Under the pieces are notes generated by a model. That model had not been told where the DNA came from. It did not search any database and saw only the letters and a program-made list of their open reading frames with translations. Made by a program: the position numbers and the translations under genes. DNA of 32,000 bases, taken from assembly GCA_963699255.1 (NCBI GenBank), contig OY969425.1, positions 870,001 to 902,000 of the forward strand. Reading direction: 5' to 3'. The stretch is from an uncultured bacterium (lineage in GTDB: Bacteria > Margulisbacteria > WOR-1 > CAVSGV01). Numbering within the stretch: position 1 is the stretch's first letter; every line of letters starts with the position of its first letter. Below, piece by piece: positions 4,053 to 19,467 of the stretch.

Positions 4053-4060
4053 CTTTGCTT

Positions 4061-4083
4061 CCCTCCACCACCTTAATCTCCTC
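4061..4083 (-). repeat. junction motif copy J3 (ccctccaccaccttaatctcctc)
   Basis: 21/23 identical to J2 and 20/23 identical to J1. It lies at the 3' end of the 256/269-aa ORF and provides the SD for the next gene. Confidence 0.9.
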
Positions 4084-4840: not shown

Positions 4841-5601
4841 CCCTCCACCACCTTGACCTCCTCTTCTGTCAATCTGCAACAAATTTCCTTGGAAGATTTA
4901 TCATACAGTAAGAAATATTTATTTATATCTAGCTTTAGAAATATTTTGTCTGGAACCATGTCAGTCGTCTTATTATGATTAACTATTTCATTTTTTAGAT
5001 ATTCGGGCAGATCCCCATTGGAAATGCTACTAACAAATAGTAATATCTTGCAATATTGAGAATACTTTCCTAGTTGATTCCCTGCCTTTTCAATTGACCG
5101 GAAAACGCCGAGTGAGGGATTTTCGCAAGCAGTAGAAGAATCGCCAAAGATGATTGACTGTCCCGTATCTTGATGTTTGTCAATATAAACCTTCCCAACA
5201 TTGGGAAGGTTGAAGGATTTTTCATTTTTATTAATGGCATTCAAGACTTGTTCAATAAATATAGTGGCATCATTTTCAGAGTTTATTCTGAGGTTATTGG
5301 GAAGAGGTATGGTATAAATCCCCCTAGAAAACGACATTTCATTGGATGCAAGTGCTTTGCGCAATCGCACTTTAATCCTTTCATTGCGGATAATATCTGC
5401 TGTAATTTGCTGATGAATAAAAGTCTTTATCTCAACAACACTATTTATTTCCCTCAAGAGATAATCCGGCTCCCTAGATATACTCGCTGTGTCTAAAGGG
5501 ATAGCTTGAATGATCATGTTACTTTGTTTAAAGCAAGAATCATAAAACGCCTTTAATTCATCATCTTCTTTTTTATGCTCTTGGCTAAAAATCAAAGTCA
5601 C
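4837..5601 (-). CDS. hypothetical protein (254 aa) with PD-ExK-like motif
   Basis: The GTG start overlaps the RM stop as GTGA (5598-5601). EPDYLLREINSVVEIKT fits a (P)D...ExK nuclease core. The C-terminus, LTEEEVKVVEG, copies the RM enzyme tail. Confidence 0.5.
   Translation of the reverse strand: MTLIFSQEHKKEDDELKAFYDSCFKQSNMIIQAIPLDTASISREPDYLLREINSVVEIKTFIHQQITADIIRNERIKVRLRKALASNEMSFSRGIYTIPLPNNLRINSENDATIFIEQVLNAINKNEKSFNLPNVGKVYIDKHQDTGQSIIFGDSSTACENPSLGVFRSIEKAGNQLGKYSQYCKILLFVSSISNGDLPEYLKNEIVNHNKTTDMVPDKIFLKLDINKYFLLYDKSSKEICCRLTEEEVKVVEG
4841..4863 (-). repeat. junction motif copy J2 (ccctccaccaccttgacctcctc)
   Basis: See J1 and J3. It encodes EEVKVVEG at the end of the 254-aa ORF and gives an SD-like GGTGGAGG for the next gene. 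Confidence 0.9.
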
Positions 5602-8483
5602 TTCTCCCCCTCCACCACCGCGATCTCCTCTTTCGTCAGGTCATAAAGCTCATAAACAAGGTCATCTATCTGCTTATCGAGTATTTCTATCTTCTGCTGA
5701 TAGTGCTTCTTATCGCTTTCAGTCTTGGCAGAATGTGCCTTTTTCTTTGTTTCGAGCATTTGGTCGACAAGAGAAGTAATAGATTTCATGGCATTTGTAT
5801 CGGCAATATTTATTGGGAGTTGAGCAATATGCCCTCTTTTGACCTGTGCAAGCGCCTCTCCCTTTTCAGGATTCAATATGTTTTGATAATACCAGTTCAT
5901 CAATTTAGAATTAATTAACCCTAAAACATATTTCAAATCAATATTTGATCTTTTTGGCACTACCGTATACAAATTATCGCGAACGATAAATTGTGATTCG
6001 TCTAATGTCGCCACTAAAGAATCTCCGGTTTGTCGAATCACTATTTTAGCTTTTGCGTCATAATCTGCGGAATAACGCGGTTCAGCAAGCCAATCTCCAA
6101 ACTTTATATAATAATTATTATTCCAAATTATTAAATATCTGTTCATTAAACTTCCTCGAAGAAGTGGACGGAAACTTGAATTCTTGTGTTCATCTGAAAC
6201 AAACGGCTTATCTTCGAGGATTTGCTTTGTTTGGGGAGGAACTCCTTTGCCAACCTGAAAAGGTTTGCTCCCCTGCGTAATTTTACATATTTCGTCAAGA
6301 ACCGGGAACCTATTTATTTTCTTTAAAAGCCCGTTATCTTCTTTTCTTTGCATAATATTAATTGGTTTGCCATTCAATTTAATCCAGTCTAGCTGTAAAG
6401 CATTGTTCTTTGTGATTTGCCCATTTTTATTATTAATTTCAATACCAATGTTATGTGTTTTACTTGGAAATAAATTACTTATTATCAAAATTTGAGTGTC
6501 CACAACCGCATCTTTGAAAACCGGTATACGATAATCAACAATTCTCTCTATCTGGGTTTTATTTATTAAATATTGGCGAATGTTTGAATATTGTAAGCTT
6601 ATTAACCAGGTATTTGGGATAATAAAACTAAGTAGCCCATTTTTACTTAATAATTTATGCCCTTTCTCAAGGAAAAGCAAATAGCTGTCCATTTGATAAT
6701 TTTGCATTTCATAAGTCTTTGTTATGTAACTTACCTCATCTTTTCCGAATAATGCCCCATAAGGTGGATTCCCAATCACCACATCAAAACCACCGTTTGC
6801 CATGATCTCGCCAAATCCTTTATCCTTGTCATGCCAATCATAATCATTGATCTTATTTTTTAACTCTCTATCATCAAATAATTGCAAATTTTCTTTATAG
6901 AAATCTGGCCCTATCAGCGAATTGCCGCATTTGATATTATTTTTTAGTTCGGGCAAATATTTAAAGTTGCTTTCTTTAAATAATTTTGCCTGTCCTTCCT
7001 GCTCAATTTCCATATTTTCTTCCTTCATGAGCGTAAGCAATAATGATAGCCTTGTTACCTCGACAGCTTGTTTGTCAATGTCCACCCCATAAATATTATT
7101 CTTAAGTATTCTTTGTTTTTCAGGGATTGACAGATAGTAGTCATTATTGATGGTGTGATATATTTTGCCTTGTTTTAAGGACTTCTCTCGTCTACTTTCG
7201 TCCCAATAATAATCAAAATGATAATCTAACAGATGCTGATAGGCCCCGATCAAAAAACTTCCACTACCACAAGCCGGATCAAGTATTTTAATATTTGAGA
7301 TTTCATCCGGTGTTTTTTTGTTGATTTTTTTGTTAACCGTATTACTTACAATGTATTCAACAATATATTGTGGAGTGTAATACACCCCGCCTGCTTTTCT
7401 CACTTCTGGCTTCGGTTCAATTTTTACATGATTATTTTCAGTTAATTTGATTACTTTCCCGAGAAATTGTTCATAAATACTTCCGAGAATTTCGATTGGC
7501 ATCACGGAAAATGCATATGATTCATAAAGCTCATTGATGATGTGGAATAGTATATCGTCATCCACTTTAATTGAACTCAGCCATTCCTCAGATTCAAACA
7601 ACTCACTATTATATTTTTCTTTTGCTTTTTCAAACAGATCATTTAAAAGCTTATAAATATTTGCATGGGTCGTGATTTTTAAAAGTGTTTCATAGTCCTC
7701 AATGTCTTTATCTTCAGCTATTCTTAAAAAGATTAGCCTATCAATAAGTTTCTGAACCGCATAATTAAGCTTATCTGCTTCATCCATTTTTGGGTTGTTA
7801 TTAGCAATGCTTTTTGCAAACATTAATCGCCACTCATCAATTATTTCAAGAAATTCCTTGTCTAGGGGCTGATTCCCTTTTTGTGTCTTTATATTGTCCA
7901 GGCTTTTATTAACAACGGCATCTTTCGAGAATGTCTGATATATGTATTCGAAATTGGTTATATTTATATCATGCTCATAAGGGTCCAAGAGTTGTTCGTA
8001 GGTACAATAAAACACCCTTGCGGTCCGAACGCTATCGGATTTGGCGCGTACTTTTACTGTAGTGTCATATATAGCAAATTCAGCTGCGTTCGTTAATATA
8101 CAAAGTGGAAGATCGTGTGATCTCCCATACCTTCTAAGCTGGATAGCGGGGCCAACTTCTTCTTTAATTTTAACGGAAATTCTTTTTGCTTCAACATAAA
8201 ACTTATCGTGTTTGTTAATAATAAAGATATAGTCTGGATATTTCTGTCTCCCCTGAACCTTTCTTTTATTTTCTCTTCTTACTTCTCTCATTGACGGCGG
8301 GAGATGTTCGTCACTTTTCATGTCCCAACCTAATATCTCCATACCAAAAAACTTATCGATCAAATCGCTTCTAACATCTTCCTCTTGTTCTTTCTTATAC
8401 TCTTTATAGTAGCTAGATAAAGGGGTTATTATATCTTCCCTTAGCTTTTTAATTACTTTGTTATTACCGTTTTTTTGTTCCAC
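5598..8483 (-). CDS. type IIG (MmeI/Eco57I-like) fused restriction endonuclease / N6-adenine DNA methyltransferase
   Basis: The N-terminus has a PD-ExK motif (YPDYIFIINKHDKFYVEAKR). The SAM motif I is LDPACGSGSFL and catalytic motif IV is VVIGNPPYG. There is a long C-terminal target-recognition region. The tail, LTKEEIAVVEGEK, is typical of this methyltransferase family. Confidence 0.85.
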   Translation of the reverse strand: MEQKNGNNKVIKKLREDIITPLSSYYKEYKKEQEEDVRSDLIDKFFGMEILGWDMKSDEHLPPSMREVRRENKRKVQGRQKYPDYIFIINKHDKFYVEAKRISVKIKEEVGPAIQLRRYGRSHDLPLCILTNAAEFAIYDTTVKVRAKSDSVRTARVFYCTYEQLLDPYEHDINITNFEYIYQTFSKDAVVNKSLDNIKTQKGNQPLDKEFLEIIDEWRLMFAKSIANNNPKMDEADKLNYAVQKLIDRLIFLRIAEDKDIEDYETLLKITTHANIYKLLNDLFEKAKEKYNSELFESEEWLSSIKVDDDILFHIINELYESYAFSVMPIEILGSIYEQFLGKVIKLTENNHVKIEPKPEVRKAGGVYYTPQYIVEYIVSNTVNKKINKKTPDEISNIKILDPACGSGSFLIGAYQHLLDYHFDYYWDESRREKSLKQGKIYHTINNDYYLSIPEKQRILKNNIYGVDIDKQAVEVTRLSLLLTLMKEENMEIEQEGQAKLFKESNFKYLPELKNNIKCGNSLIGPDFYKENLQLFDDRELKNKINDYDWHDKDKGFGEIMANGGFDVVIGNPPYGALFGKDEVSYITKTYEMQNYQMDSYLLFLEKGHKLLSKNGLLSFIIPNTWLISLQYSNIRQYLINKTQIERIVDYRIPVFKDAVVDTQILIISNLFPSKTHNIGIEINNKNGQITKNNALQLDWIKLNGKPINIMQRKEDNGLLKKINRFPVLDEICKITQGSKPFQVGKGVPPQTKQILEDKPFVSDEHKNSSFRPLLRGSLMNRYLIIWNNNYYIKFGDWLAEPRYSADYDAKAKIVIRQTGDSLVATLDESQFIVRDNLYTVVPKRSNIDLKYVLGLINSKLMNWYYQNILNPEKGEALAQVKRGHIAQLPINIADTNAMKSITSLVDQMLETKKKAHSAKTESDKKHYQQKIEILDKQIDDLVYELYDLTKEEIAVVEGEK
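5608..5630 (-). repeat. junction motif copy J1 (ccctccaccaccgcgatctcctc)
   Basis: This is the native 3' end of the RM gene. It is 20/23 identical to both J2 and J3. Confidence 0.9.
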
Positions 8484-8591
8484 GATTAACCTCTAGCCTT
8501 TAACATCTCTCGCCAGCACTCATAAATCATGACCTTTGCCAGCATATCCAGCTCGCAATATTCTAAAAATATACGCCCAGAGAAGAACACT

Positions 8592-9812
8592 TCAATCCTC
8601 TTCGCCCTCCCCCTCCACCGGCTTCCCCACAGCTTCTTTATGTACCTTGGTCAAATATTTTTTGATTTTCTTTATTATATCAGCATCCCACTTCACATAC
8701 TCTTTAATTAATGCTGTTGTGCTAAGGTCCGACACCTCATCCCACTTGCCGATCTTTCTTATAATTTGCTCAAGTTCATCCCTTCCCTCTTCACTCTTCG
8801 CCGGGAAATGCGGCTTATCCTCTATCTTCACGCTAACCTTATAATCCTTGCCTTGCACCACACTAAGGTCTTTCTTTTTTGCAAATGCGATTATCGCTTC
8901 CTTAAGTTTCTCGATCTCAGCATCAACAGCCTCAACCTTTGCCTCTGCCTTTTCCTTGGCCTCATATAAGTCGGCGTATTTCCCTACCAGCACAAGCCCG
9001 TTATCCTTTAAATATTCATTCTTCTCTTTCTTTTCAAGCTCAATGCCATGCTTCTTTGCAGGGCATATCTCTATGAATTCGCACCAATCGCATAGGCGTG
9101 ATTCAATAGGTTTAAAGTTATCATCAGCCTCTATCTCCTTGATCGTGGTTAATAGCTCAGCTTTAAGCTCTTTTATCTGCTTTTTGGTTCGGCGGGACTC
9201 TACATCGCGGTTATCTGCCAAGAAATGCCATATAAGCACTATCTCTTTAGCCTCGGGATACTGCTGCTCAACAAATATCTGATAAAGCGCCAGCTGCCTG
9301 CTTGCATCCGCCTGTTCTTGAGTATAACCGGACTGCCCGGTCTTATAATCGTGTATTTCAAAGGTCCCCTTGCCGTTGTGCGATAAACGGTCAATAAAGC
9401 CGTTTATTCTATACTCTCCCGCATCATCCAGGTTAAAATGGATCATCATCTCCAGCCCAAGCGTATATGTCTGGTTGAACGGCTTGAACCTTTCATAGTA
9501 ATCGGTTAGCTGCTTTACTCCCGCATCGTAGTAATTCTGGGCGGTGAAGCCTTTGCGAACTATCTGAACATCTTTTGTAAATTTCTTGTCCCAAAGCTCT
9601 TTGTATAGGTCCAATGTCTCTTTGAGAGAGAATACTTTGCCCATTTTTTGGGCTTTATATAGCTGTTCTAGTGTTTCGTGAGCTCTTTTCCCAAGGAAAG
9701 CTTCTATTCCTTCTGGGGATTCCGGCATCTTAATTCTATCTATGTAGTTAAACTTAAACTTTCGGGGGCAGGTTTCATAGCATCCAATTTTTGAGTGTGA
9801 ATAATTCGGCAT
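8592..9812 (-). CDS. PD-(D/E)XK nuclease, Cas4/AddB-like with Cys cluster, plus coiled-coil C-terminal extension
   Basis: An N-terminal Cys (GCYETCPRKF), IHDYKTG (DxK), QLALYQIF (QxxxY) and CDWCEFIEICP give the 1+3 Cys pattern of Cas4/AddB iron-sulfur nucleases. The K/E-rich C-terminal approx 140 aa looks coiled-coil. Confidence 0.75.
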   Translation of the reverse strand: MPNYSHSKIGCYETCPRKFKFNYIDRIKMPESPEGIEAFLGKRAHETLEQLYKAQKMGKVFSLKETLDLYKELWDKKFTKDVQIVRKGFTAQNYYDAGVKQLTDYYERFKPFNQTYTLGLEMMIHFNLDDAGEYRINGFIDRLSHNGKGTFEIHDYKTGQSGYTQEQADASRQLALYQIFVEQQYPEAKEIVLIWHFLADNRDVESRRTKKQIKELKAELLTTIKEIEADDNFKPIESRLCDWCEFIEICPAKKHGIELEKKEKNEYLKDNGLVLVGKYADLYEAKEKAEAKVEAVDAEIEKLKEAIIAFAKKKDLSVVQGKDYKVSVKIEDKPHFPAKSEEGRDELEQIIRKIGKWDEVSDLSTTALIKEYVKWDADIIKKIKKYLTKVHKEAVGKPVEGEGEED

Positions 9813-9855
9813 TACTAAATATTACCTCTCTTTCCGGTCAAAAACAACCAGTTGA

Positions 9856-9868
9856 GTGTATTGTACAC
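9856..9868. promoter_or_regulatory. candidate operator (gtgta-ttg-tacac) in the divergent nuclease/WYL intergenic region, with an extended -10-like tgatataat at 9900-9908
   Basis: Inverted repeat and TGnTATAAT seen directly. Functional assignment is inferred. Confidence 0.3.
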
Positions 9869-9920
9869 CAGATCTCTGTCAGTATTTGTCAGAGTACTAT
9901 GATATAATTTCGGCAGGATC

Positions 9921-10886
9921 ATGGAACGTCATACTTATATACGCATAGCAAAGATCGATGCTCAGATCAGGCAGAAAAAGCACCCGAACTGCAAAAAGCT
10001 TGCTGATCAATTTGAAACCTCCCAACGCACCATACTCCGCGACATAGAGGCCATGAAGGATTCTATGGGCGCGCCCATCGGCTACAGCAAGGAGAGGAAC
10101 GGCTACTACTACACGGATGATAATTTTCAGTTGCCGGAAATACGACTTACGGAAGGCGAGCTTGTATCTATTTTCCTTGGTGAAGAAATTCTGAAAAAAT
10201 ACCAGGGAACGCCGTTCGGCTCCGTCATAACCAGCGCGTTCGAAAAGATTCGCCTCTCCTTGCCGGACTCCATATCTATAGACCTAAACACTATTAGCGA
10301 CAGTTTCTCTTTTAATATACCGCAAACCAGGAAACTGGATGAACAATCAGCAAAGACGTTCGATATATTGGCAAAAGCGATAAAAACTAAGAACAGTGTT
10401 GAAATAACATACCATGCTCTTGGCAGGAACACTATAGCAAAACGCATTGTGGATCCCTACCACCTGCGCCACTCCATGGGCACCTGGTATCTCATTGGTT
10501 ATTGCCAACTCAGGAAAGATTTTAGGACGTTTATTATTAACCAGATCCGCACCATCAAGGTCATAGATAGCAAGTACAAGGTTGACCCGACCTTTTCTAT
10601 TGAAAAGTTCCTTGCTTATTCATGGGATATTTTTGAGGGAGCTCCTATAACAAAGGTAAAAATTAAGCTGGATAAAGAGATCGCCAGATGGTTCATCGAT
10701 AGAAAGCTCCACCCCACCCAAAAGACAACCGAGAATAAGGATGGCTCAATTACGATGGAATTTAAAGTTTCAGGAACATCAGAGATAAAAAGATGGGTTT
10801 TGGGCCAGGGGAAATATGCAAAGGTGATCGAGCCACGAAGCCTGAGGCGGGAGATAATTGAAGAAGCAAAGGAAATGCAGAAATAG
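9921..10886 (+). CDS. HTH + WYL-domain transcriptional regulator (BrxR/CapW/PafBC-like)
   Basis: The N-terminal wHTH reads KKLADQFETSQRTILRDIEAM, followed by GYYY. The central WYL region reads HLRHSMGTWYLIGYCQLRKDFRTFIINQI. The gene is divergent from the nuclease/RM operon. Confidence 0.8.
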   Translation: MERHTYIRIAKIDAQIRQKKHPNCKKLADQFETSQRTILRDIEAMKDSMGAPIGYSKERNGYYYTDDNFQLPEIRLTEGELVSIFLGEEILKKYQGTPFGSVITSAFEKIRLSLPDSISIDLNTISDSFSFNIPQTRKLDEQSAKTFDILAKAIKTKNSVEITYHALGRNTIAKRIVDPYHLRHSMGTWYLIGYCQLRKDFRTFIINQIRTIKVIDSKYKVDPTFSIEKFLAYSWDIFEGAPITKVKIKLDKEIARWFIDRKLHPTQKTTENKDGSITMEFKVSGTSEIKRWVLGQGKYAKVIEPRSLRREIIEEAKEMQK

Positions 10887-11031
10887 ACCGCCTTTACATG
10901 ATTCTTCTACCCTCGTAGCCGCCTAATAGCCCCTTTTTGCAATAGGCCATATACTCTGACGCATAGTGTCATACCTCCCATGTTAAACTACCAAATAATA
11001 ATTATATTAAACAAAAACGAGGTGGATAAAC

Positions 11032-11475
11032 ATGCTAATTAAAGAAATATATAAGCTTTTCGACAATAAACTGGAAATACGCCCAAAAAGTAAAGCCTCC
11101 AATGTATTAAGGGACATCTCATCATTTCTTACAAAACCTGGATTGATCAATATAGAAGTGAAGGATCTTAATAAAATAATCTTATCAAGTGACAAGATGT
11201 TCGCCATATCGGCAAAAGCGCATGGAAAAGAAAGAGCTCACAAGCTTGGTCGCCAGATCGTTTCCAGTATTCCGGCTGTATTTCGGGCCAAAAAAGCTAC
11301 AAACGTAATTTTTAATATTATCGGGAGTTCAGACTTAACCCTCTGGGAGGTTAATGAAGTTGCCGGATATATCTATGATGCGATTGACCCTCATGCAAAT
11401 ATCATATTTGGCGCCCTTATCGACGATAAGAAAAAAGACTTTATTAATGCGACTGTCATATTCGGGGGCAATTAA
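11032..11475 (+). CDS. stand-alone FtsZ C-terminal-domain protein (no GTP-binding domain)
   Basis: SD gaggtgg precedes the ATG. It aligns by eye with the host FtsZ in this window: PGLINIEVKDL / NVIFNIIGSSDLTLWEVNEVAGYIYDAIDPHANIIFGALIDD versus [11 protein letters not shown] / [42 protein letters not shown]. Confidence 0.75.
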   Translation: MLIKEIYKLFDNKLEIRPKSKASNVLRDISSFLTKPGLINIEVKDLNKIILSSDKMFAISAKAHGKERAHKLGRQIVSSIPAVFRAKKATNVIFNIIGSSDLTLWEVNEVAGYIYDAIDPHANIIFGALIDDKKKDFINATVIFGGN

Positions 11476-11489
11476 AGGAGGTCTTGTAA

Positions 11490-12071
11490 ATGGATAAAGA
11501 GAAAGATATTTCCTATCGCAATGTCAGCTGTTCTAATGCGCCTGAAAGTAAGAACAATACAGTTCCAACGACCGATTCAAGAAGCATTTTGGTCTTTAAA
11601 CAGATGGATGATGAATTAACGAAGGATTTTGTTTCCAAGCTTATCGAGCTAGAAACCAAAGATGCTGAAAAGGACATTAAGGTATTCATAAATTCTCCGG
11701 GCGGATATGTTACATCATTATTTTGTATGTTGGATTCTTTGCGGTTGGTGAAGCCGGATATCAAGACTTACTGTCTTGGAGAGGCTGCTTCCGCCGCCGC
11801 GGTATTAACAATGTCAGGAACAAAAGGGAAGAGATATATTACAAAACATAGCAGGATTCTATTGCATCAGCTAAGTTCTTTTGCTTTGGGACACATAGCA
11901 GATGTCAAGATCTCTGTTAAAGAGTCGGAAAGAATAAATTCTATTCTAATGGATATAATAATTGAAAGAACAAAGATTAAAAGAAAAGAATTAAAAAAAT
12001 TGATATCGAGGGATTGTTGGCTGTCCGCACAAGAAGCACTGGAATATGGTTTAGTAGATCACATTCTGTAG
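11490..12071 (+). CDS. ClpP-family (S14) serine protease paralogue
   Basis: SD aaaggagg precedes the ATG. Motifs FINSPGGYV, GEAASAAAVL (Ser), ILLHQL (His) and SRDCWLSAQEALEYGLVD (Asp) follow the ClpP catalytic-triad contexts. The N-terminus is divergent. Confidence 0.8.
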   Translation: MDKEKDISYRNVSCSNAPESKNNTVPTTDSRSILVFKQMDDELTKDFVSKLIELETKDAEKDIKVFINSPGGYVTSLFCMLDSLRLVKPDIKTYCLGEAASAAAVLTMSGTKGKRYITKHSRILLHQLSSFALGHIADVKISVKESERINSILMDIIIERTKIKRKELKKLISRDCWLSAQEALEYGLVDHIL

Positions 12072-12096
12072 TTTTGCTCCACATGTTTTCCAGTAT

Positions 12097-12341
12097 AGCA
12101 TTTTACCGCCTTTCCCTGTAAAGCGCGCTCACATTGGGACTTCGTATAAAGCCCCCTATCCCGAAAAAAGTCCTCATCCTTGCGGATTTTTTCGGGTATT
12201 AGTTCTCGCCCTCCTCCAGTCGCCCGACTAAAGTCGAGGCTCCTTCCGGCCCTCCGCTCGTTGCACTCATTCACCATAATTAGATATTAGGTGTGGTTCA
12301 TTCGCTTCTCTCGCTTCGGGTGACAGGGGCGGTAAAATGCT
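12097..12341. other. structured non-coding element closed by a 14+5 bp long-range helix
   Basis: agcattttaccgcc (12097-12110) is the perfect reverse complement of ggcggtaaaatgct (12328-12341). cctgt (12115-12119) pairs with acagg (12323-12327). An internal hairpin reads cccgaaaaaagtcc...ggattttttcggg. Confidence 0.4.
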
Positions 12342-12383
12342 GTTCCTTCCTGTGTGTTTTTATTTCACAGGGAGGTGGTTTTC

Positions 12384-12911
12384 ATGTCTCGTTTAGCAGG
12401 CGTCATTGGTTCCCGTTCATTACCCGTTTCTTTTGCCCCGCTTGTTTACCACATCGTTTCCCTTCTCCTTTCCCGTGGCTATGGCATTGCCTCAGGTGGC
12501 GCAGTAGGAGCTGATTCATTTGCTCTTGCAGCGGTCATTCGGCGGGGGGTAGCTTCACGCTGTGTCATTTACTCAGCTTGGGCTTCTGCTTCTGGGTTTC
12601 CTTCCTCGGTTCAGCCTCAGGTTTCTCGTTTCCTTGCTTCCGGTGGTCAGGTTGTTTGGGGATCCTGTCCGGTTGGTGCTTCGCGTCAGGAGGCGGTTTC
12701 TGCCCTTCTCGGTAGGAACAGGCGGCTTGTTTCTGCTTCCTCGGTTATCGTTGCTTTCCTTCATGGTCAGTCTCGCGGGTCTCTTTACACGGTCCGTCAG
12801 GCAGTTGAGCAGGGTGTTCCGGTCATTGTGTTCCTTTGCGGCGGGGGTACGTCTTTGCCCGCTGATCTTACTTCCAGGTGTTTAGTATTTACAGAAAAGG
12901 AGGTGGTTTAG
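12384..12911 (+). CDS. DprA/Smf-like (SLOG superfamily) Rossmann-fold protein, nearly lysine-free
   Basis: SD ggaggtgg precedes the ATG at 12384. The motifs GVIGSRSLP...GYGIASGGAVGADSFA...GRNRRLV...SRGSLYTVRQAVEQGVPVIVF match the DprA core pattern. The coding strand is strongly A-depleted. Confidence 0.6.
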   Translation: MSRLAGVIGSRSLPVSFAPLVYHIVSLLLSRGYGIASGGAVGADSFALAAVIRRGVASRCVIYSAWASASGFPSSVQPQVSRFLASGGQVVWGSCPVGASRQEAVSALLGRNRRLVSASSVIVAFLHGQSRGSLYTVRQAVEQGVPVIVFLCGGGTSLPADLTSRCLVFTEKEVV

Positions 12912-12913
12912 TT

Positions 12914-13120
12914 ATGGTGGCATCAGTTTTGTCCCCCTGTCTTTGTTGCGACGATCATTTGCCCGGATTCCGCTGCGTTCCACGGCAGCGTGCCCGTTGT
13001 TCCAGGTTCCTTGAATATGTCGAGCGGCTCCACAGGGCCCGCGCTCACGGCATATTGATCAGCGAGCTTAAGGAAATTGTTTCCGGTTCCGTTGAAGAAA
13101 ACACAGAAAAAGTGAGGTGA
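12914..13120 (+). CDS. small Cys-rich hypothetical protein (68 aa)
   Basis: SD aaggaggtgg precedes the ATG at 12914. The sequence is CLCCDDH..C......C. The start is 3 nt after the upstream stop. Confidence 0.4.
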   Translation: MVASVLSPCLCCDDHLPGFRCVPRQRARCSRFLEYVERLHRARAHGILISELKEIVSGSVEENTEKVR

Positions 13121-13125
13121 AAATC

Positions 13126-13299
13126 ATGAGAATTTGTAGAGTATGCGGTTCATTCCTTGTTCCCTGCAACGAAGGAATAGATCATATCGGCTTCCAGCCA
13201 TATACCCTTCCGCAAACTGTTTATATCTGCCAGAGCTGTCTCACGGCAATACAGAACATAATCGAGTATGGTTATTCCTCTCAATTAGTCTCCGCTTAA
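13126..13299 (+). CDS. small zinc-ribbon protein (57 aa)
   Basis: SD gaggtg lies 6 nt upstream of the ATG at 13126. The CxxC...CxxC pattern is CRVCG...CQSC. Confidence 0.45.
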   Translation: MRICRVCGSFLVPCNEGIDHIGFQPYTLPQTVYICQSCLTAIQNIIEYGYSSQLVSA

Positions 13300-13305
13300 T
13301 CACCA

Positions 13306-13340
13306 AGGCCTGATTCATCATCAGAACAGGCCTCATTTTG
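13306..13340 (+). terminator. rho-independent terminator candidate
   Basis: aggcctg (13306-13312) pairs with caggcct (13327-13333), followed by cattttg. Confidence 0.5.
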
Positions 13341-13564
13341 GTCGCTAGCCAACTCTTCTTTGTATTAATAAATTCATACTTTGTCATATAAAACACTTAC
13401 ATTTCACAATATGTGCTAGTTGTGGTCAAGCTGGATCTATTTCGTAAAAGCAATGAAGGTGAGGCAAGGTCAAGGGTGAGTCCGCATCCATAATTATTGG
13501 CAACCCACTCACCCATTTATATCGTCACAATCTACAGGGACTATTTGCGGCAGTAGCAGTCATT

Positions 13565-13867
13565 TTACTCAGTTGTTTGAGTTGACTTCTTATATGCATA
13601 TACATATTTCGTTGAATAATCGCCACCACCTGGGCCACCATCAGTTTTCAGTGTGTTAACAAAATATTCTTCAACTTCTCTGGCTATATCCGAAGTAGCG
13701 CATTCGCGATAAATCCACAGGTCAGAATCCTTATTAACAGTATGATCCGTGAATAGCCGCTTTTGAGGATCAGATGCTATCCCAACATACCAATCTGAAT
13801 ATTTACTAGTAAGATTATTTATATACGTCTTAATATCTGCAATAATTTCAGGCTTACTTTTTGCCAT
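13565..13867 (-). CDS. small GIY-YIG-like domain protein (100 aa)
   Basis: SD aaaggagga precedes the internal ATG at 13867. The motifs WYVGIASDPQKRLFTDH...AREVEEYF loosely resemble the YVG...R...H...E core of GIY-YIG. Confidence 0.4.
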   Translation of the reverse strand: MAKSKPEIIADIKTYINNLTSKYSDWYVGIASDPQKRLFTDHTVNKDSDLWIYRECATSDIAREVEEYFVNTLKTDGGPGGGDYSTKYVYAYKKSTQTTE

Positions 13868-13935
13868 ATATGCTCCTCCTTTCTTAGACATTCAAATCTC
13901 GAGAATCGACCATCTCGCTGGGTTATATGACCCAG

Positions 13936-14139
13936 TCATCCTTTCCTGTTATAGGGAGATTGATTGGTCGGGCTTAATGAAATCCCTTCTTCACTAGCCT
14001 TTGTATAAACCGCAGCTTCTGTTCGTCCGGTTAGCAGGCCAATTACCCTTGTTGGGGTGTTCTTGTTGGCTAATTGTCTGATTTTTGATACATCAGCCTG
14101 TGTCCAAGGTTTCCCCGAATTCCTGTTATACTTTGCCAT
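13936..14139 (-). CDS. small Myb/SANT-like HTH protein (67 aa)
   Basis: The pattern is KPWTQADVSKIRQLA...RVIGLLTGRTEAAVYTKASEEGISL. Confidence 0.45.
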   Translation of the reverse strand: MAKYNRNSGKPWTQADVSKIRQLANKNTPTRVIGLLTGRTEAAVYTKASEEGISLSPTNQSPYNRKG

Positions 14140-14158
14140 AACTTTTCACCTCCCATAT

Positions 14159-15001
14159 TTAATAGGCATTGTCATCTACATACCGCTGGTAATCGTCACC
14201 AGTCCATATAAACACCACAACAGATCGCCCAGGATCGATTTCGAAGGCATACTCATTAATGCAGTAAGGTTGCTTTTTAAACTTTTCACTTATCCAACAT
14301 TTTGCCTGAACTTGAACTGGCTTATCAGATAAGGGGATCTGGCGAGTAAAATACCCATTAACAGTACTGACCGGGGATACTTTTTCGTTGACTGCCACAA
14401 AAAGGTGGTCTTCATTAAAGCTTTCTGAAGATTTAAACGATTTGATTTGTCCATCTTTCACGAAAATGGCTGCACAGATTCCATAAGTAAATTCTACAAA
14501 TCTTAACATGGCGGCAGTTTTTGATACATTATACTTATCCGAGACAACATCTATTGAAGCCATGTCTACATTTAGATCTTTGCACTCTTCGCGAAGAATA
14601 TCCTCGGGCATCAGCAATTCTGCCGCAAACTCATTTGCTTCCGCCTCTTCATCTCCTTTAAGGCCACTCTTAATCATATCATCTGGTGCACAGATATATT
14701 TCACGCCTTTATGATACGGAATGAAAATGTGCCCCAATTCATGTGCAATTGTGAACCTTTTCCGTTTTTCATATGTATATCTACTGTTAACGAGAATTCC
14801 AACATTCCCTTCGATCTTCACAGAATAGCCCTCGAAATGATCGGCATCCTCTTCCTCTATTGTGACATTATGGCTTCTTGCGATTCCCCTGACATCTATT
14901 GGAAGAGAGTTATACTTGGCATCAGACTCCATCAGAAGCTTCTTTGCAAAAAACGATGCGGGATCCTCATTAAACCTAGGTTGACTCATCTTATTTATCA
15001 C
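14159..15001 (-). CDS. ImmA/IrrE-family (M78) zinc metallopeptidase with approx 130-aa C-terminal extension
   Basis: The HEXXH motif sits in FTIAHELGHIFIPYH, with EANEFAAELLMP downstream. The ORF overlaps the upstream gene by 11 nt. Confidence 0.75.
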   Translation of the reverse strand: MINKMSQPRFNEDPASFFAKKLLMESDAKYNSLPIDVRGIARSHNVTIEEEDADHFEGYSVKIEGNVGILVNSRYTYEKRKRFTIAHELGHIFIPYHKGVKYICAPDDMIKSGLKGDEEAEANEFAAELLMPEDILREECKDLNVDMASIDVVSDKYNVSKTAAMLRFVEFTYGICAAIFVKDGQIKSFKSSESFNEDHLFVAVNEKVSPVSTVNGYFTRQIPLSDKPVQVQAKCWISEKFKKQPYCINEYAFEIDPGRSVVVFIWTGDDYQRYVDDNAY

Positions 15002-15410
15002 CCTTCTTGATCTTTATATTAAACCTTTCAATTAACTCTTTATCCTTTGAGGTAAGCCCTTCATTGCCTTTTCTAAAAGCACCTTGGAGCAGTGGTTGTA
15101 GCAAAGAGGGTGTCATCTGACTCTGTTGGGCGGCAGGAGCGGCCTTCTTGCCATATAAAGTCTCATATTTTTGCTCAATAAAATCGAGCACCTTAGCTTT
15201 AAAACCAGAAGAGACCTTTAAGGCATGGAAATATTCCTTTGCCTCGTAAGCGCTTTTAAGAAGTTCTTTTGCCTCGCTCGCCTGTGCCGGAGTTAAATGC
15301 CTAGACTCAATAAATGCTTCGAGATCTGGTGAAGGATTCACTTTAGTTTCTTCAATCCATGCATCAAGAACTGTTTCATACAATAATTCACTTCTCTCTT
15401 TATCCTTCAT
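14991..15410 (-). CDS. hypothetical soluble protein (139 aa), candidate anti-sigma/adaptor
   Basis: Its start overlaps the sigma stop as ATGA at 15407-15410. No TM helix and no recognisable motif. The role is inferred from position only. Confidence 0.45.
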   Translation of the reverse strand: MKDKERSELLYETVLDAWIEETKVNPSPDLEAFIESRHLTPAQASEAKELLKSAYEAKEYFHALKVSSGFKAKVLDFIEQKYETLYGKKAAPAAQQSQMTPSLLQPLLQGAFRKGNEGLTSKDKELIERFNIKIKKGDK

Positions 15411-15997
15411 CTTTCCCCCTCCTTTTTATCCCTTATCTTTCCATAATAGTTTTTAATTTTCACGGTTCCTCTCAAGACCAAATTTTTGATTGAGGCCTCC
15501 GATTTATCCATAACAAGTGCAACCTCTTTAGTGTTCAGTTCATCTACATATCTCAACATTAAGGCTTCACGCTGCTCCTCTGTTAATTCGTTTAAACATT
15601 GACCCATTTCTGCAGCCGTTTCGCTGTGAGCCTCCTGTTCAATTAATTCCGTTTCCAGGTCGCAAGTCTCGAGGTCTTCTAAAAGCTCCGCGTCCAATTT
15701 AAGTTCAGAAAAGGACGTTTCCCGTTTCTTTTTCCTAAAATAATCAGAGCAACAATTTCGAGCGATCCTAAATGCCCATGTTGTGAATTTTGATTGACCC
15801 TTGAAGGTATCAAATTTCTCCAAAATATGGGAAAACGTCTCCGCAGTTATTTCGTATTTTTCATCGCTATTTTCAACTTGGCTCCCTACAAACCTTTCCA
15901 CATCGTCGTAGATTCCCTCACATAACTGCCTAAACGCCCTTTTGTCCCCATTACGCGCTTTTTCTAATAAGTCTTCACTGTTCAATAATATGGCCAC
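15407..15997 (-). CDS. ECF-type sigma-70 family RNA polymerase sigma factor
   Basis: Region 2 reads TWAFRIARNCCSDYFRKKKRE. Region 4 reads LTEEQREALMLRYVDELNTKEVALVMDKSEASIKNLVLRG. The start is uncertain: GTG at 15997 or TTG at 15985. Confidence 0.8.
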   Translation of the reverse strand: MAILLNSEDLLEKARNGDKRAFRQLCEGIYDDVERFVGSQVENSDEKYEITAETFSHILEKFDTFKGQSKFTTWAFRIARNCCSDYFRKKKRETSFSELKLDAELLEDLETCDLETELIEQEAHSETAAEMGQCLNELTEEQREALMLRYVDELNTKEVALVMDKSEASIKNLVLRGTVKIKNYYGKIRDKKEGER

Positions 15998-16149
15998 CTT
16001 TCATAAGTTGTGTGCATGATCATCCCTTCTTCCCCTCTATATATTAGACGTAAAAGTCACCTAAAAGTCTCGTTTATTTGGAGATATTACAAACTCATTT
16101 TACTCCTTGCATTTATCATTGTATAATCCCCCCCCAAACATTTTGGGCT

Positions 16150-16410
16150 TGGTTTGGCGGGCGGGCGGCGGCACAACACGAAGACAAATACCGCCGAAGG
16201 CGGAGCAGTAGCTTCGGTTCTTTTCTTTGGCGGGCATTGGCGGGCGGCATGACACAAAGTCAAATACCGCCGGAGGCGGAGCAGGAGTTATGGTCTTTCT
16301 CCTTTGAATGTGCGTAGCACACCTTAATTACCTGCCTGTCGACTTGTCCGCCTCTGGCGGAAGCCTCGGCGAAGGCGGGGGCATTGTTCATTGGTAGTTG
16401 GTCATTCTCC
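16150..16410. repeat. degenerate tandem repeats (approx 75-105 bp units) each with a GC hairpin ccgcc-gaa/gga-ggcgg and a G-run tttggcgggc
   Basis: Units starting near 16153 and 16225 are roughly 80 percent identical by eye. The third and fourth units are decayed copies. Confidence 0.6.
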
Positions 16411-16928
16411 TTTGGCGGAACCATGGAAAAAGCAACACAGAAATACAATGAGCAATCACTTGAGGAGGCTCAAGGAATGCCTTCATTCCGCTCTGGAAAC
16501 GCTCAGATTAAGCAGACAGACCAGCTTCGCCTGCCTTGGCCTTTGGCGGGCCCATCGTGGCAGGGAACGTTCCTCAAGAGCCACGAGTCGAACAATCTTT
16601 GTGACGGACAGCTTGTCCCGTCCAGCGTAGCGGGACAATGAGCTTCTTCTTTTCGAGGATCCCGAAAGCTTCTTTGGCTGTGTGAACAGCAATAACTTCA
16701 AGCTCTCAGCGTGTCTTCAACTCTTTGGGTCAGGTTCTTCTGTCTTCTGTTCGTGTTCATATCCAAAGTCATTGATCCTTTGTCTTTCTCTAATGCTAAT
16801 GAACAACAGCTATCAATCAACTGTACAAATGAATACGTATTATATTAATTAATAAATACCTAGTGCGCGCTTGGCCGCGCGCCTGCGCTCGTGCGTACGT
16901 GCCTGTGTACGCGTATCGTATATAGAGG

Positions 16929-16963
16929 GATACTGTGAAACTCCCCGGCTAAGTCACAGTATC
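16929..16963. other. perfect 10-bp stem hairpin (gatactgtga / tcacagtatc) with 15-nt loop
   Basis: Seen directly. It lies between an alternating purine-pyrimidine tract and IR-L. Confidence 0.5.
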
Positions 16964-17040
16964 GGTAGTCATAAGTGCTTCTTGCTCCCGTGGATAGTAT
17001 TAGGTAGAATTATCGAGAAAGTTCGAAGATGACTCGAGTT

Positions 17041-17210
17041 CCCAGTAATCTTATAGCTACAAACCTTAGCTAACCCCAATTTTTCATCGGCACCGGCTCC
17101 GTTTTTTTCTGGCTGGTCGGTTCGGCGGCCAAAAATGGGCGGGGGCATTTTTGGCCGCCGGTCATGCTCCGCACCGCCCGAAACACAAGCATTTGCGGCG
17201 GGCAGGCAAA
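17041..17210 (+). repeat. IR-L: left copy of a perfect 170-bp inverted repeat
   Basis: Checked block by block: identical to the reverse complement of 18789-18958. It contains a perfect 15-bp-stem hairpin, cggcggccaaaaatg/catttttggccgccg. Confidence 0.95.
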
Positions 17211-17274
17211 CCTATTGCCTCTATTGTCTCTTTTGAAAACGATTTTGGATGTTTGACTAACTTTATCAGCTTCT

Positions 17275-17511
17275 CTATTTAGTTAGTTTATCCATTGAAA
17301 GACCCAAAGCATCTGCTATAGCTTTTACCATTTCAATTCCCGGATTCTTGACCGATCCATTTTCAACCCTCATTAAATGGATTGAAGTAAATTTGCCGTC
17401 GCACTTATGAGCCAACTTTTCGCGTGACAATCCGGCCTTTTTACGGTATTTCTCTATATTCTTACCTAGGTTCATTAGTATTATTTTATCATCCTTCATA
17501 TATCTTGACAT
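17275..17511 (-). CDS. XRE-family HTH transcriptional regulator (78 aa)
   Basis: The HTH_3 pattern is LGKNIEKYRKKAGLSREKLAHKC...LMRVENG...P.IEMVKAIADALGLSMDKL. Confidence 0.75.
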   Translation of the reverse strand: MSRYMKDDKIILMNLGKNIEKYRKKAGLSREKLAHKCDGKFTSIHLMRVENGSVKNPGIEMVKAIADALGLSMDKLTK

Positions 17512-17532
17512 ATATACATATATGTATATACT
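17505..17532 (+). promoter_or_regulatory. candidate promoter TTGACA-16 nt-TATACT whose spacer and -10 overlap a perfect 20-bp palindrome (17511-17530)
   Basis: ttgaca is at 17505-17510, tatact at 17527-17532, and the palindrome is tatatacatatatgtatata. There is no SD before the ATG at 17540, which suggests a leaderless recombinase mRNA. Confidence 0.4.
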
Positions 17533-17539
17533 ATTCCCG

Positions 17540-19355: not shown

Positions 19356-19467
19356 ACGCTTCGACTCGCTTTCGCTCGCTCAGCGTAATGACAAATTACC
19401 AATGACAAATTCCAAATTGGGTATTGAAGGATTGGAAATTAATTTGGAATTGAAAATTGGTAATTGA

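Follow-up and report, generated by a model that had tools for sequence, protein, structure and literature searches.

The inhibitors SulA and MciZ block FtsZ by occupying its longitudinal interface; they have unrelated folds and bind the T7, or bottom, side of the protein. Mobile elements encode further FtsZ inhibitors, namely, lambda Kil, Qin DicB, and CbtA. The C-terminal half of FtsZ itself is known as the GTPase-activating domain, and engineered FtsZ interface (capping) mutants as well as separately expressed FtsZ domains have reportedly been studied. The polarity of the FtsZ filament has been discussed, and the donor elements of the longitudinal contact are the T7 loop, H8, S9, and H10 (PMC8936486). 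In addition, WYL-type activators have been described that turn on division inhibitors, namely, DriD, which turns on DidA (PMC9186387), and DdaA, which turns on AciT (PMC13010146). The promoters recognized by the related regulator PafBC have the consensus tGTCgg(N10)tA(N3)T (PMC8635444). Here, we analyze a stretch of DNA of 32,000 nucleotides (the window) in which a gene for a WYL-type regulator is followed by a gene encoding a part of FtsZ. The features discussed are compiled in Table 1.

Table 1. Features of the locus, with positions in the window and the basis of each assignment
Feature	Position	Strand	Basis and details
Type IIG restriction-modification enzyme	5598-8483	-	Pfam/PADLOC
Cas4-like PD-(D/E)XK nuclease	8592-9812	-	Pfam/PADLOC; divergent from WYL gene
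WYL gene promoter	9877-9908	+	Palindromic operator TGTCAGTATTTGTCAGAGTA (9877-9896), then ctaTGaTATAAT
wHTH-WYL-WCX transcription regulator, 321 aa	9921-10886	+	Pfam HTH_11, WYL, and WCX matches
Candidate WYL-dependent promoter of FtsZ_C-ClpP unit	10952-10989	+	Operator copy TACTCTGACGCATAGTGTCA (10952-10971)
Standalone FtsZ C-half, 147 aa	11032-11475	+	PF12327 (FtsZ_C) match, FtsZ alignment, AlphaFold2 fold, dN/dS
Divergent ClpP paralogue, 193 aa	11490-12071	+	Pfam CLP_protease, triad, clade alignment, dN/dS
Conserved structured noncoding junction	12072-12353	none	Conservation across loci and folding z-scores
Conserved A-poor block	12384-13299	+	DprA/SLOG-like (12384-12911), 68-aa ORF (12914-13120), 60-aa Cys-rich ORF (13117-13299)
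Large serine recombinase	17522-19087	+	Pfam Resolvase, Recombinase, Zn_ribbon_recom; right island end
tRNA-Gln	18953-19025	-	Abuts large serine recombinase
Host full-length ftsZ	19775-20842	-	Domain matches (Tubulin and FtsZ_C), IELPAFL tail, alignment

RESULTS

A free-standing GTPase-activating half of FtsZ

The 147-aa protein is composed of a short N-terminal helix and strand, a remnant of helix H7, the T7 loop, H8, and the GTPase-activating domain (S7 to S10, H9, and H10). Three approaches agree on this assignment. (i) The Pfam family FtsZ_C was matched with an E value of 8e-16 and 58.6 bits (cut-off, 27). (ii) Residues 189 to 311 of Mycobacterium tuberculosis FtsZ aligned with the protein without gaps (E=5e-17), and the FtsZ encoded in the window shared 42% identity with it across residues 187 to 315. 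(iii) The AlphaFold2 model, with a pLDDT of 88.9, superimposed on FtsZ structures with TM scores of 0.71 to 0.74 and rmsd values of 2.3 to 2.8 Å. The T7 motif L-I-N-I-E-V-K-D is located at residues 38 to 45 (N40, E42, and D45) and corresponds to the synergy loop N-x-D-x-x-D, with a conservative D-to-E change at E42. A Pfam scan of the protein returned no match to the Tubulin/GTPase domain (PF00091), and the 145-nt spacer that separates the ORF from the WYL gene contains stop codons in all three frames. The protein ends in ...VIFGGN and lacks the IELPAFL-type C-terminal tail present in the host FtsZ. With 54 bits, it remained far below the cut-off of 295 of TIGR00065, the equivalog of bona fide FtsZ; FtsZ_C and ftsZ were its only Pfam and NCBIfam matches, and it is no member of the SulA, SidA, DidA, AciT, or YneA families. 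A Shine-Dalgarno sequence and a promoter element of its own precede the gene. The original prediction, made from the sequence alone, had aligned the product with H7, the T7 loop, and the C-terminal subdomain of the FtsZ in the window and had described a retained T7-like motif (N-x-E-x-x-D) and the loss of both the GTP-binding N-terminal domain and the tail, and it is borne out on each of these points. These data confirm that the product is a free-standing FtsZ GTPase-activating half without nucleotide-binding domain and C-terminal tail.

Conservation of the docking face

The presumed target of this protein is the host FtsZ, the gene of which belongs to a dcw cluster that includes ftsQ and ddl but no ftsA. 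The AlphaFold2 model places T7, H8, S9, and H10, all donor elements listed for the longitudinal contact, within the 147-aa protein. All family members share D45 and L104, the equivalents of D212 and L272 in E. coli; for D45, this holds across 12 members. The identity to the host FtsZ averages 56% in the docking elements versus 26% in the rest of the protein; H8 is poorly conserved (24%), and the T7 position equivalent to D209 is occupied by D, E, T, or N in the family. Some of this retention is expected anyway, since no other parts of FtsZ C-terminal domains are conserved as highly as the docking elements. The suggestion that the protein could cap or poison filaments is structurally reasonable, given that the elements that dock on a neighboring subunit are kept. 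According to a published kinetic model, a fragment bearing the T7 face would cap the nongrowing end; its main effect would therefore have to be the sequestration of monomers, for which high expression would be needed.

A WYL-type operator and promoter

The closest solved relatives of the WYL protein are PafBC (2e-16), the RNA polymerase-bound PafB/PafC, and DriD. Orthologues with 60 to 64% identity head other cargo arrays, in the related loci L008 and L015/L016. From position 9887 on, the promoter of the WYL gene reads TGTCAG-N10-TATAAT, a pattern present at three WYL orthologue promoters (window, L008, and L015) and, by sequence comparison, equal in layout to the -26/-10 hybrid promoter of PafBC. 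The operator palindrome, TGACA-N5-TGTCA, together with an extended -10 box, is found upstream of the FtsZ_C-ClpP unit as well, where the operator is an inverted copy of that at the WYL promoter; from position 10967 on, the sequence reads TGTCAT-N11-TAAACT, including a TGn extended -10 box. We consider this a candidate promoter of the hybrid type: the TGTCA element is located at about -26, the -10 box is extended, and a -35 box is missing. Homologous elements, composed of TGTCA[G/T]-N10/11 and a -10 box, are located 40 to 75 nt ahead of FtsZ_C, ClpP, TPR, and other cargo genes in L006, L008, and L015; no clear operator copy was seen in L013 and L017. We counted 4 copies of the WYL-promoter pattern in the window (0.09 expected), and the operator/promoter motif was matched 14 times in 147 kb versus 1.1 in shuffled sequences. 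A generic sigma-70 promoter scan was uninformative (5 promoter-like sites versus 6.3 expected).

We infer from these similarities that the WYL protein acts as an activator at these promoters. That the operator, centered near -31, might be a repressor site was considered and dropped, because the nearest solved homologues, PafBC and DriD, are activators and because the spacing is that of the PafBC -26/-10 promoters. The WYL gene is more than a mere neighbor, a link that the original prediction missed. The operator and promoter would tie the unit to ssDNA or DNA damage signaling, an interpretation with better support than that of an abortive-infection pair acting on its own. The more constant link of the FtsZ_C gene appears to be a regulatory one, via the WYL-type operator, and not that with ClpP.

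The ClpP paralogue is an optional accessory

A gap of 14 nt, in which no internal promoter was found, separates the FtsZ_C gene from the ClpP gene, which is preceded by the Shine-Dalgarno sequence AAGGAGG; in the window, both genes form one predicted transcription unit. The 193-aa product matches Pfam CLP_protease (PF00574; E=1e-50, 172 bits), its catalytic triad Ser101/His126/Asp175 is intact and invariant in the clade to which it belongs, and its dN/dS is 0.03 to 0.10. In contrast to the catalytic core, the first 28 residues could not be aligned with canonical ClpP; alignments begin at residue 29 or 30, and the segment is clade specific, with a pLDDT below 50 for residues 1 to 29 of the model. 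Neither the axial loop at the N terminus nor helix A nor the hydrophobic docking pocket of canonical ClpP was recognized, and all clade members have a lysine at what we take to be the position of Tyr60 in the docking pocket of E. coli ClpP. The entire clade falls below all NCBIfam ClpP cut-offs; the protein from the window reached 179 bits with NF009205 (its best match; cut-off, 228) and 140 bits with TIGR00493 (cut-off, 309). It is not a prohead protease either, with 87.7 bits for NF045542 (cut-off, 120) and no capsid or scaffold genes nearby, and IMG/VR contained no close relative, the one viral ClpP match sharing only 30% identity. No Clp ATPase was found among the window ORFs scanned; at locus L012, the beginning of the clade ClpP gene is overlapped by a gene for a ClpX-like ATPase that, by eye, has no IGF loop. 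A ClpP with its own Shine-Dalgarno sequence, intact Ser/His/Asp contexts, a divergent N terminus, and no Clp ATPase nearby is what had been predicted.

The two genes had furthermore been proposed to form a division-arrest module. We considered this proposal in its strict form, a dedicated two-component division-arrest or abortive-infection system in which the protease is mechanistically required, with the fragment delivering FtsZ to a gate-less ClpP or with ClpP serving as an antitoxin-like controller. Both families are rare, and that they come together in three diverged architectures is more than chance; their genes are direct neighbors in the window and in L011, a diverged locus, and in L008, about 550 bp separate the clade ClpP from a TPR-FtsZ_C fusion. 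The short spacer without internal promoter, the missing gate and helix A, and the lysine at the Tyr60 position would all fit such a system as well. ADEP-opened, ATPase-independent ClpP is reported to prefer FtsZ as a substrate (PMC7327170). However, most members of the FtsZ_C-only family have no ClpP: it is cleanly absent from L005, a collinear close relative, and missing from at least five other family contexts (L006, L007, L013/L014, L015/L016, and L017 to L019). Conversely, ClpPs of the clade occur without an FtsZ_C gene in L009/L010, in L012, where the partner is the ClpX-like ATPase instead, and in the P0011 contig, and the ClpP in L008 has its own copy of the operator and promoter and thus behaves as a separate cassette. 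A 188-aa ORF after FtsZ_C in L013/L014 was inspected as a potential degenerate ClpP and rejected, since it showed neither a Pfam match nor BLAST similarity. We therefore consider an obligate two-component system unlikely. Of the module proposed, the FtsZ_C-only gene and its transcription unit with ClpP in an accessory island stand, and the cooccurrence recurs at L011 and L008, but the pair is not fixed; ClpP is an optional accessory of the regulon and no obligate partner of FtsZ_C.

A mobile, defense-rich island

The noncoding junction begins directly after the ClpP stop codon and divides the variable cargo from the conserved DprA-like block. It is about 87 to 89% identical in L005, L011, L017 to L019, and L023, regardless of the gene to its left, and it folds more stably than shuffled sequence, with z-scores of -4.1 (DNA) and -3.6 (RNA). 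The DprA/SLOG-like protein of the A-poor block matches Pfam DNA_processg_A (5.6e-12) and, weakly, PADLOC ShosA. In the MAG loci L021 to L023, the A-poor block is followed by a serine recombinase with 49 to 51% identity to that in the window; the block is the backbone partner of the recombinase. Its better conservation compared to FtsZ_C had raised the suspicion of a recent insertion, which was discarded: when the window is compared with L005, both show similar synonymous divergence (0.58 versus 0.64), so the DprA-like block and FtsZ_C have codiverged. We detected no clear att repeat pair that would span the entire island.

The neighborhood is rich in defense genes, comprising restriction-modification, a Cas4-like nuclease, AIPR, and McrBC, and is equally compatible with a role in defense and with a housekeeping damage checkpoint. 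PADLOC matches were limited to four neighbors (WYL, Cas4-like, Type IIG restriction-modification, and ShosA-like); no PADLOC-DB v2 profile matched the 147-aa protein or ClpP, and no system of this architecture was found in our literature searches, in line with the original prediction. Defense might nevertheless be served by a decoy or sensor that mimics the FtsZ surface attacked by phage division inhibitors or other FtsZ-binding factors, either soaking up the attackers or, with TPR partners, sensing them and signaling to island effectors. Apart from the Type IIG and Cas4-like genes, AIPR directly upstream in L015/L016, the Type III-like methylase in L017, and the TPR protein that is fused to FtsZ_C in L008 and encoded beside it in L006 are consistent with this idea, as is the frequent position of WYL regulators at the head of defense islands (PMC9122601, PMC11662680). 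We regard it as rather improbable, because no PADLOC model recognizes the 147-aa protein, because the invariance of the catalytic T7 aspartate and of the L272 equivalent goes beyond surface display and is expected for a protein that engages the nucleotide face, and because no relatives that would hint at an arms race were found in viral collections. The collections were scanned for FtsZ_C, the ClpP clade, the DprA-like protein, and WYL, and tblastn searches of INPHARED phages and PLSDB plasmids did not retrieve family members either; the FtsZ_C matches in viral, phage, and plasmid records were ordinary ftsZ genes in mislabeled or chromosomal entries.

The FtsZ_C-only family

The family consists of about 19 clusters of proteins of 145 to 161 aa each, with mutual identities down to 30%, and is rare, having been seen only in uncultured Margulisiibacteriota/Saganbacteria-like bacteria. 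Full-length members are separated from true FtsZs by a score gap (at least 191 bits versus at most 123 bits). The N terminus is conserved and family specific, the dN/dS of 0.15 to 0.34 indicates purifying selection, and no remnant of the N-terminal domain was found at any family locus. A metagenome scan with the family alignment yielded 80 candidate loci, all of which proved to be ordinary ftsZ genes; they serve as a control, since none of the 80 contained a short internal ORF. The closest full-length relatives of the family are the FtsZs of the same lineage. The gene probably originated from a partial duplication of an ftsZ of the host lineage and has become mobile cargo in Margulisiibacteriota-like bacteria.

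Could the domain have been exapted for a task unrelated to FtsZ, as a scaffold, a small-molecule-binding module, or part of a split tubulin with a separate GTPase-domain protein? The varying downstream partners (a 72-aa membrane protein and proteins of 102 and 188 aa without family match), the fairly fast evolution of the family at the upper end of its dN/dS range, and the divergence of H8 and of the back face of the domain would be compatible with such a change. It is nonetheless quite improbable, given that conservation clusters on the longitudinal interface, that FtsZs of this same lineage are the nearest full-length relatives, and that no Tubulin-domain ORF was present among the neighbors scanned in the window and the related loci. 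That the ORF is a functionless, decaying remnant of a duplicated or frameshifted ftsZ, as its truncation and its location in a recombination-prone island might suggest, is effectively refuted by the length conserved across the clusters, the purifying selection, the conserved N terminus, the own Shine-Dalgarno sequence and promoter element, and the stop codons in all frames of a spacer without trace of an N-terminal domain.

DISCUSSION

A proposed division brake and its meaning

Our preferred, still tentative, reading is that the 147-aa protein may be a natural dominant-negative "broken subunit" that serves as an ssDNA-induced division brake, with ClpP as an optional accessory. Based on the similarity to PafBC and DriD and on the promoter layout, ssDNA that arises when DNA is damaged or when a phage or an element replicates would activate the WYL protein, and the activated promoter would give rise to the FtsZ half. 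Its T7 loop, H8, H10, and S9, the interface that has been kept, would then dock on the GTP-bearing face of a host FtsZ monomer or filament end. As the fragment has no nucleotide-binding domain, nothing could add onto it, and as it has no C-terminal peptide, it would not be anchored; FtsZ would consequently be sequestered or capped, GTP would possibly be hydrolyzed futilely, and Z-ring assembly would stop. Division would thereby be braked in response to damage or infection, in analogy to SulA, DidA, and AciT, and ClpP would most plausibly clear the inhibitor, permitting a division reset, or degrade FtsZ.

A broader reading is possible but doubtful, namely, that the WYL activator drives shuffled cassettes of dominant-negative fragments of host division proteins and that the gate-less ClpP is an FtsZ degrader or reset protease. 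The putative cassettes would be the free FtsZ GTPase-activating half, its TPR-fused version, and a SepF core without membrane anchor; L008 contains a SepF-core-only gene. This gene and the TPR-FtsZ_C fusion of the same locus, a theme of truncated division proteins within one regulon, also speak for the division brake itself.

If the division brake proposed above is real, it would be the first natural FtsZ inhibitor made of half of FtsZ. It would offer a tool to study filament polarity, capping versus sequestration, and the trans-activation of the FtsZ GTPase, for which only engineered mutants have been at hand so far, and the emerging rule by which WYL activators link the sensing of ssDNA to an arrest of division would extend to a deep-branching uncultured phylum and to mobile defense islands. 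Were the broader cassette reading true, the locus would represent an unrecognized class of inducible division brakes assembled from pieces of their target and contain the first natural protein that acts in trans as an FtsZ GAP or cap. Three aspects can be tested separately: PafBC-type promoters outside the Actinobacteria, the modular cassettes with their operator tags, and the noncanonical gate and docking pocket of the ClpP clade.

Comparison with known systems

The locus shares several features with DriD/DidA of Caulobacter, DdaA/AciT of Acinetobacter, and the mycobacterial PafBC regulon. In all cases, a wHTH-WYL-WCX regulator is located beside, or controls, a small division-blocking gene, that role being the predicted one here. 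The GTC-containing element about 10 to 11 nt before the -10 box and the absence of a -35 box are those of PafBC-type promoters; as in driD, the promoter of the regulator bears the same site, and the link to ClpP recalls that between pafBC and the proteasome, another compartmentalized protease. The differences concern the effector and the genomic setting. Neither DidA, which targets FtsN, nor AciT is related to FtsZ, both being small membrane proteins, whereas the candidate effector here is a fragment of FtsZ itself; the systems described are core-genome checkpoints, whereas this one is mobile cargo in a defense-rich island, where activation by ssDNA is suggested by analogy.

A ClpP-family protease tied to FtsZ biology is reminiscent of the action of ClpXP and of ADEP-activated ClpP on FtsZ, and the altered N-terminal gate recalls deregulated ClpP. 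Distinctive of the present clade are the missing helix A, the lysine in the docking pocket, and, in one locus, the unusual ClpX-like partner. With Kil, DicB, and CbtA, the locus has in common that an accessory gene is expected to stop host division, but these inhibitors are unrelated to the 147-aa protein and none of them is an FtsZ fragment. For SulA and MciZ, which show no sequence relationship to the protein either, the expected outcome is the same, namely, FtsZ monomers or filament ends that are unable to elongate; in contrast to them, the T7-bearing half would take the opposite, GTP-bearing face and could stimulate GTP hydrolysis. A parallel in logic is provided by the engineered capping mutants, in which one competent face makes a dominant-negative cap. 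Unlike these laboratory constructs, the proteins described here form a natural family under selection, with a shortened H7, an N-terminal segment of their own, and dedicated regulation.

FtsZ_C is a standalone FtsZ half and forms a gene family

The original prediction placed here a protein confined to the FtsZ C-terminal domain and, behind it, a ClpP paralogue; both open reading frames (ORFs) are present exactly as proposed (see table). The first product, FtsZ_C, exceeded the curated Pfam FtsZ_C cut-off (E = 8e-16), with no other notable match, aligned without gaps with M. tuberculosis FtsZ residues 189 to 311 (E = 5e-17), and shared 42% identity with residues 187 to 315 of the full-length host FtsZ. 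A confident AlphaFold2 model, built from 12 family members (pLDDT 88.9, pTM 0.85), comprises a short N-terminal helix and strand, a helix equivalent to the last part of H7, the T7 loop, H8, and a C-terminal subdomain of four strands with H9 and H10; Foldseek matched it to FtsZ structures with TM scores of 0.71 to 0.74 and rmsd values of 2.3 to 2.8 Å. The predicted lack of a GTP-binding N-domain and of the C-terminal tail was likewise confirmed: the Pfam search found no GTPase domain in the protein, the 145-nt spacer from the upstream WYL gene has stop codons in every frame, and the C-terminal anchor peptide is absent.

Approximately 19 clusters of 145 to 161 aa that fit the family profile from residue 1 emerged when 1.8 billion representatives were searched exhaustively with the profile and 5.8 billion sequences were screened by a profile word search. 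Members keep this length at identities to the window protein as low as ~30%, evolve with dN/dS values of 0.15 to 0.34, and have in common a family-specific N terminus, F-x-N-K-[LV]-x-[VI]-x-P, apparently a relic of the FtsZ "IPNDKL" strand. With the family HMM, no full-length member scored below 191 bits and no true FtsZ above 123 bits, and an internal short ORF was found in none of 80 ordinary ftsZ loci. One member is annotated as coming from a Candidatus Saganbacteria MAG, and the best-scoring true FtsZ fragment in the family profile search came from Margulisiibacteriota; searches of IMG/VR, INPHARED, and PLSDB returned no member. A frameshifted remnant of a full-length ftsZ paralogue is contradicted by the constant length of the clusters and by their dN/dS values, and the sequences represent a gene family, not debris. 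We regard it as settled that the 147-aa protein is a natural, selected, standalone GTPase-activating half of FtsZ.

FtsZ_C and ClpP are facultative partners

The second ORF starts 14 nt past the FtsZ_C stop codon behind its own Shine-Dalgarno sequence (AAGGAGG) and encodes a ClpP-family protein (Pfam, E = 1e-50) with an intact Ser101/His126/Asp175 triad, as anticipated, that reaches none of the NCBIfam ClpP cut-offs. It belongs to a small clade (59 to 83% identity; next relatives, ~45%) in which a lysine occupies the E. coli Tyr60 pocket position. The N terminus, rightly noted as divergent, is clade specific: it is conserved within the clade and lacks the canonical helix A, and residues 1 to 29 are unstructured in the predicted model.

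The pairing recurs beyond the window. Contig L011, with 77% DNA identity to the window, begins within the 3' end of FtsZ_C, followed by a clade ClpP. At locus L008, a clade ClpP is followed by two small ORFs and, ~550 bp downstream, by the gene for a 492-aa protein with N-terminal TPR repeats and a C-terminal T7 loop and FtsZ C-domain (family HMM, E = 1.7e-12); at L006, separate TPR and 62-aa genes lie immediately upstream of FtsZ_C. At L012, the gene for a ClpX-like AAA+ ATPase overlaps the clade ClpP start by 11 nt; this ATPase scores 167 bits against NF003745, under the cut-off, and, judged by eye, lacks the segment bearing the ClpX IGF docking loop. The clade-ClpP loci L009/L010 and contig P0011 contain no FtsZ_C gene. 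FtsZ_C is present and ClpP absent at L006, L007, L013/L014, L015/L016, and L017 to L019, and ClpP is cleanly absent from L005, which is collinear with the window on either side. The meeting of two very rare families in three architectures is not due to chance, and these gene arrangements argue for a partnership that is real yet facultative; the notion of a self-contained two-gene system finds only partial support. ClpP might act as a reset protease or degrade FtsZ, or it may be independent cargo.

A PafBC/DriD-like regulator and its candidate promoter element

The gene on the 5' side of the unit encodes a wHTH-WYL-WCX regulator (Pfam). Among solved structures, it is closest to PafBC (2e-16), PafB/PafC on RNA polymerase, and DriD. 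Orthologues with 60 to 64% identity sit first in differing cargo arrays, namely, WYL, AIPR, and FtsZ_C at L015/L016 (Saganbacteria) and WYL, nuclease, DnaB_C-like, SepF-like, AAA, ClpP, and the TPR-FtsZ_C fusion at L008. The SepF-like protein of the latter array (88 aa) matches the SepF core only (Pfam, 26.5 bits versus a cut-off of 27; 7 of 7 weak PDB matches are SepF cores), has no space for a membrane-targeting helix, and is possibly another truncated division protein encoded in an array that starts with WYL.

Upstream of each of the three WYL genes lies TGACA-N5-TGTCA-GAGTA and then TGnTATAAT, which from the proximal half-site reads TGTCAG-N10-TATAAT. The palindrome, followed after 10 to 11 nt by a TGn extended -10 box, also lies 40 to 75 nt upstream of several cargo genes: FtsZ_C in the window and L015; the 62-aa/FtsZ_C pair and the TPR gene in L006; and ClpP, a 56-aa ORF leading to TPR-FtsZ_C, and the DnaB_C-like gene in L008. 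The window contains 4 occurrences of the pattern versus 0.09 expected, and 147 kb of nonredundant loci contain 14 versus 1.1 in shuffles. PafBC promoters share this layout, tGTCgg(N10)tA(N3)T: they combine a -26 element with a canonical -10 box, lack a -35 box, and are read by "sigma adaptation" and enhanced by ssDNA (PMC8635444). Membership of FtsZ_C in the regulon of the PafBC/DriD-like WYL regulator is well supported by these promoters. Within the window, the stretch from FtsZ_C to ClpP carries no such element; the two genes therefore make up a single unit, with FtsZ_C predicted to be co-transcribed with the divergent ClpP.

The unit resides in a mobile context

Chromosomal genes on one side and tRNA-Gln/ftsZ on the other flank the low-GC island that contains the unit. 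To the left of the unit, the neighbours code for a Type IIG restriction-modification enzyme and a Cas4-like nuclease; to its right, a conserved block begins exactly at the ClpP stop codon. A structured noncoding junction of 280 nt, in which AGCATTTTACCGCC...GGCGGTAAAATGCT form an inverted repeat, opens this block and leads into its DprA-like genes; the block as a whole is GC-rich (0.52) and extremely A-poor (coding-strand AT skew, -0.41) in an island of 36 to 40% GC. This block is present in Saganbacteria and Margulisiibacteriota MAGs, where a large serine recombinase resembling that of the window follows. On L013, a related 340-kb MAG contig compared with window positions 1 to 3331, a cassette with FtsZ_C separates the AAA-ATPase and YdjM genes, which are direct neighbours in the window, indicating that FtsZ_C moves as a cassette; together with the island context, this shows that these genes behave as mobile cargo cassettes.

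Several repeats were also observed (see table). The 32-nt motif, read on the coding strand, would give a common ...VVEGE-type C terminus beside the start of the next gene, and the repeated tRNA-Gln piece may be an old att scar.

Features of the window and of related loci
Locus	Position (strand)	Feature
Window	1109-1397	AAA-ATPase and YdjM genes adjacent
Window	3370-19100 (roughly)	Low-GC island
Window	4060-4091, 4840-4871, 5607-5638, 8610-8641	32-nt motif (CCCCTCCACCACCTTGACCTCCTC...) in four consecutive genes of the minus strand, at their junctions or ends
Window	9921-10886 (+)	WYL regulator
Window	10952-10989	Palindrome and extended -10 box of FtsZ_C
Window	11032-11475 (+)	FtsZ_C, 147 aa
Window	11490-12071 (+)	Clade ClpP, 193 aa
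Window	12072-13299	Junction and DprA-like block: DprA/SLOG-like gene, 68-aa ORF, Cys-rich 60-aa ORF
Window	13565-15997 (-)	GIY-YIG-like 108-aa, 67-aa, M78/ImmA-IrrE peptidase (280 aa), 139-aa, ECF sigma factor; absent from near-identical strain L001 (diverges after 13345)
Window	14129-14148	Weak operator-like match within the preceding cluster
Window	16167-16304	62-nt GC-rich unit (GGCGGCACAACACGAAGACAAATACCGCCGAAGGCGGAGCAG...), two tandem copies, 79% identical; apparently noncoding stretch from ECF sigma gene to recombinase
Window	17123-17160, 18839-18876	Two 38-nt GC-rich palindromes, near-identical (CGGCGGCCAAAAATG...); the first upstream of the serine recombinase gene, the second within the 3' part of its ORF
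Window	17522-19087	Large serine recombinase
Window	19007-19028, 19338-19359	22-nt tRNA-Gln piece and its repeat, 331 nt off, between tRNA and ftsZ
Window	19775-20842 (-)	Host ftsZ
Window	19775-23557	dcw cluster: ddl, ftsQ, ftsZ
L008	5494-5760	SepF-core protein, 88 aa
L008	9123-10601	TPR-FtsZ_C fusion, 492 aa
L012	2-1369	ClpX-like AAA+ ATPase
L013	8840-12893	Cassette: 99-aa ORF, FtsZ_C, 188-aa ORF

Docking face, predicted effect, and precedents

FtsZ filaments have four longitudinal contact regions, for which the T7-supplying subunit provides T7, H8, S9, and H10, and the T7 residues N208, D210, and D213 position the catalytic water (PMC8936486). All four elements are contained in the 147-aa protein, so that one longitudinal face is complete and the other wholly missing. 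The T7 loop is retained, as originally predicted, N40, E42, and D45 being the equivalents of the three FtsZ residues. Identity to the host FtsZ averages 56% over T7, H8, H10, and S9 versus 26% in the remaining homologous part, with a low value for H8 alone (24%). D45 and L104 are invariant across the family; in our own alignment, L104 corresponds to E. coli FtsZ L272, which is essential for the bottom face. Conservation of the protein lies at the docking face.

Incoming FtsZ monomers have been argued to join the T7-exposing end via their GTP-bound top surface (PMC8936486). With monomers adding in this manner, a free T7-bearing half would sit on monomers at their top surface or on the nongrowing filament end; monomer addition would be blocked, and GTP hydrolysis possibly triggered. 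We infer that FtsZ_C would dock on FtsZ and stop division upon an ssDNA signal. As a separate observation, ftsA is missing between ftsQ and ftsZ in the host dcw cluster, which fits a lineage in which SepF or similar proteins anchor FtsZ.

WYL activators that turn on a division inhibitor following DNA damage are known from Caulobacter (DriD-DidA) and Acinetobacter (DdaA-AciT). Linkage of pafBC to the proteasome locus, together with the later clearance of damage-response proteins by the proteasome, offers an analogy for a putatively co-regulated ClpP. The related WYL proteins CapW and BrxR are found at the head of defence islands.
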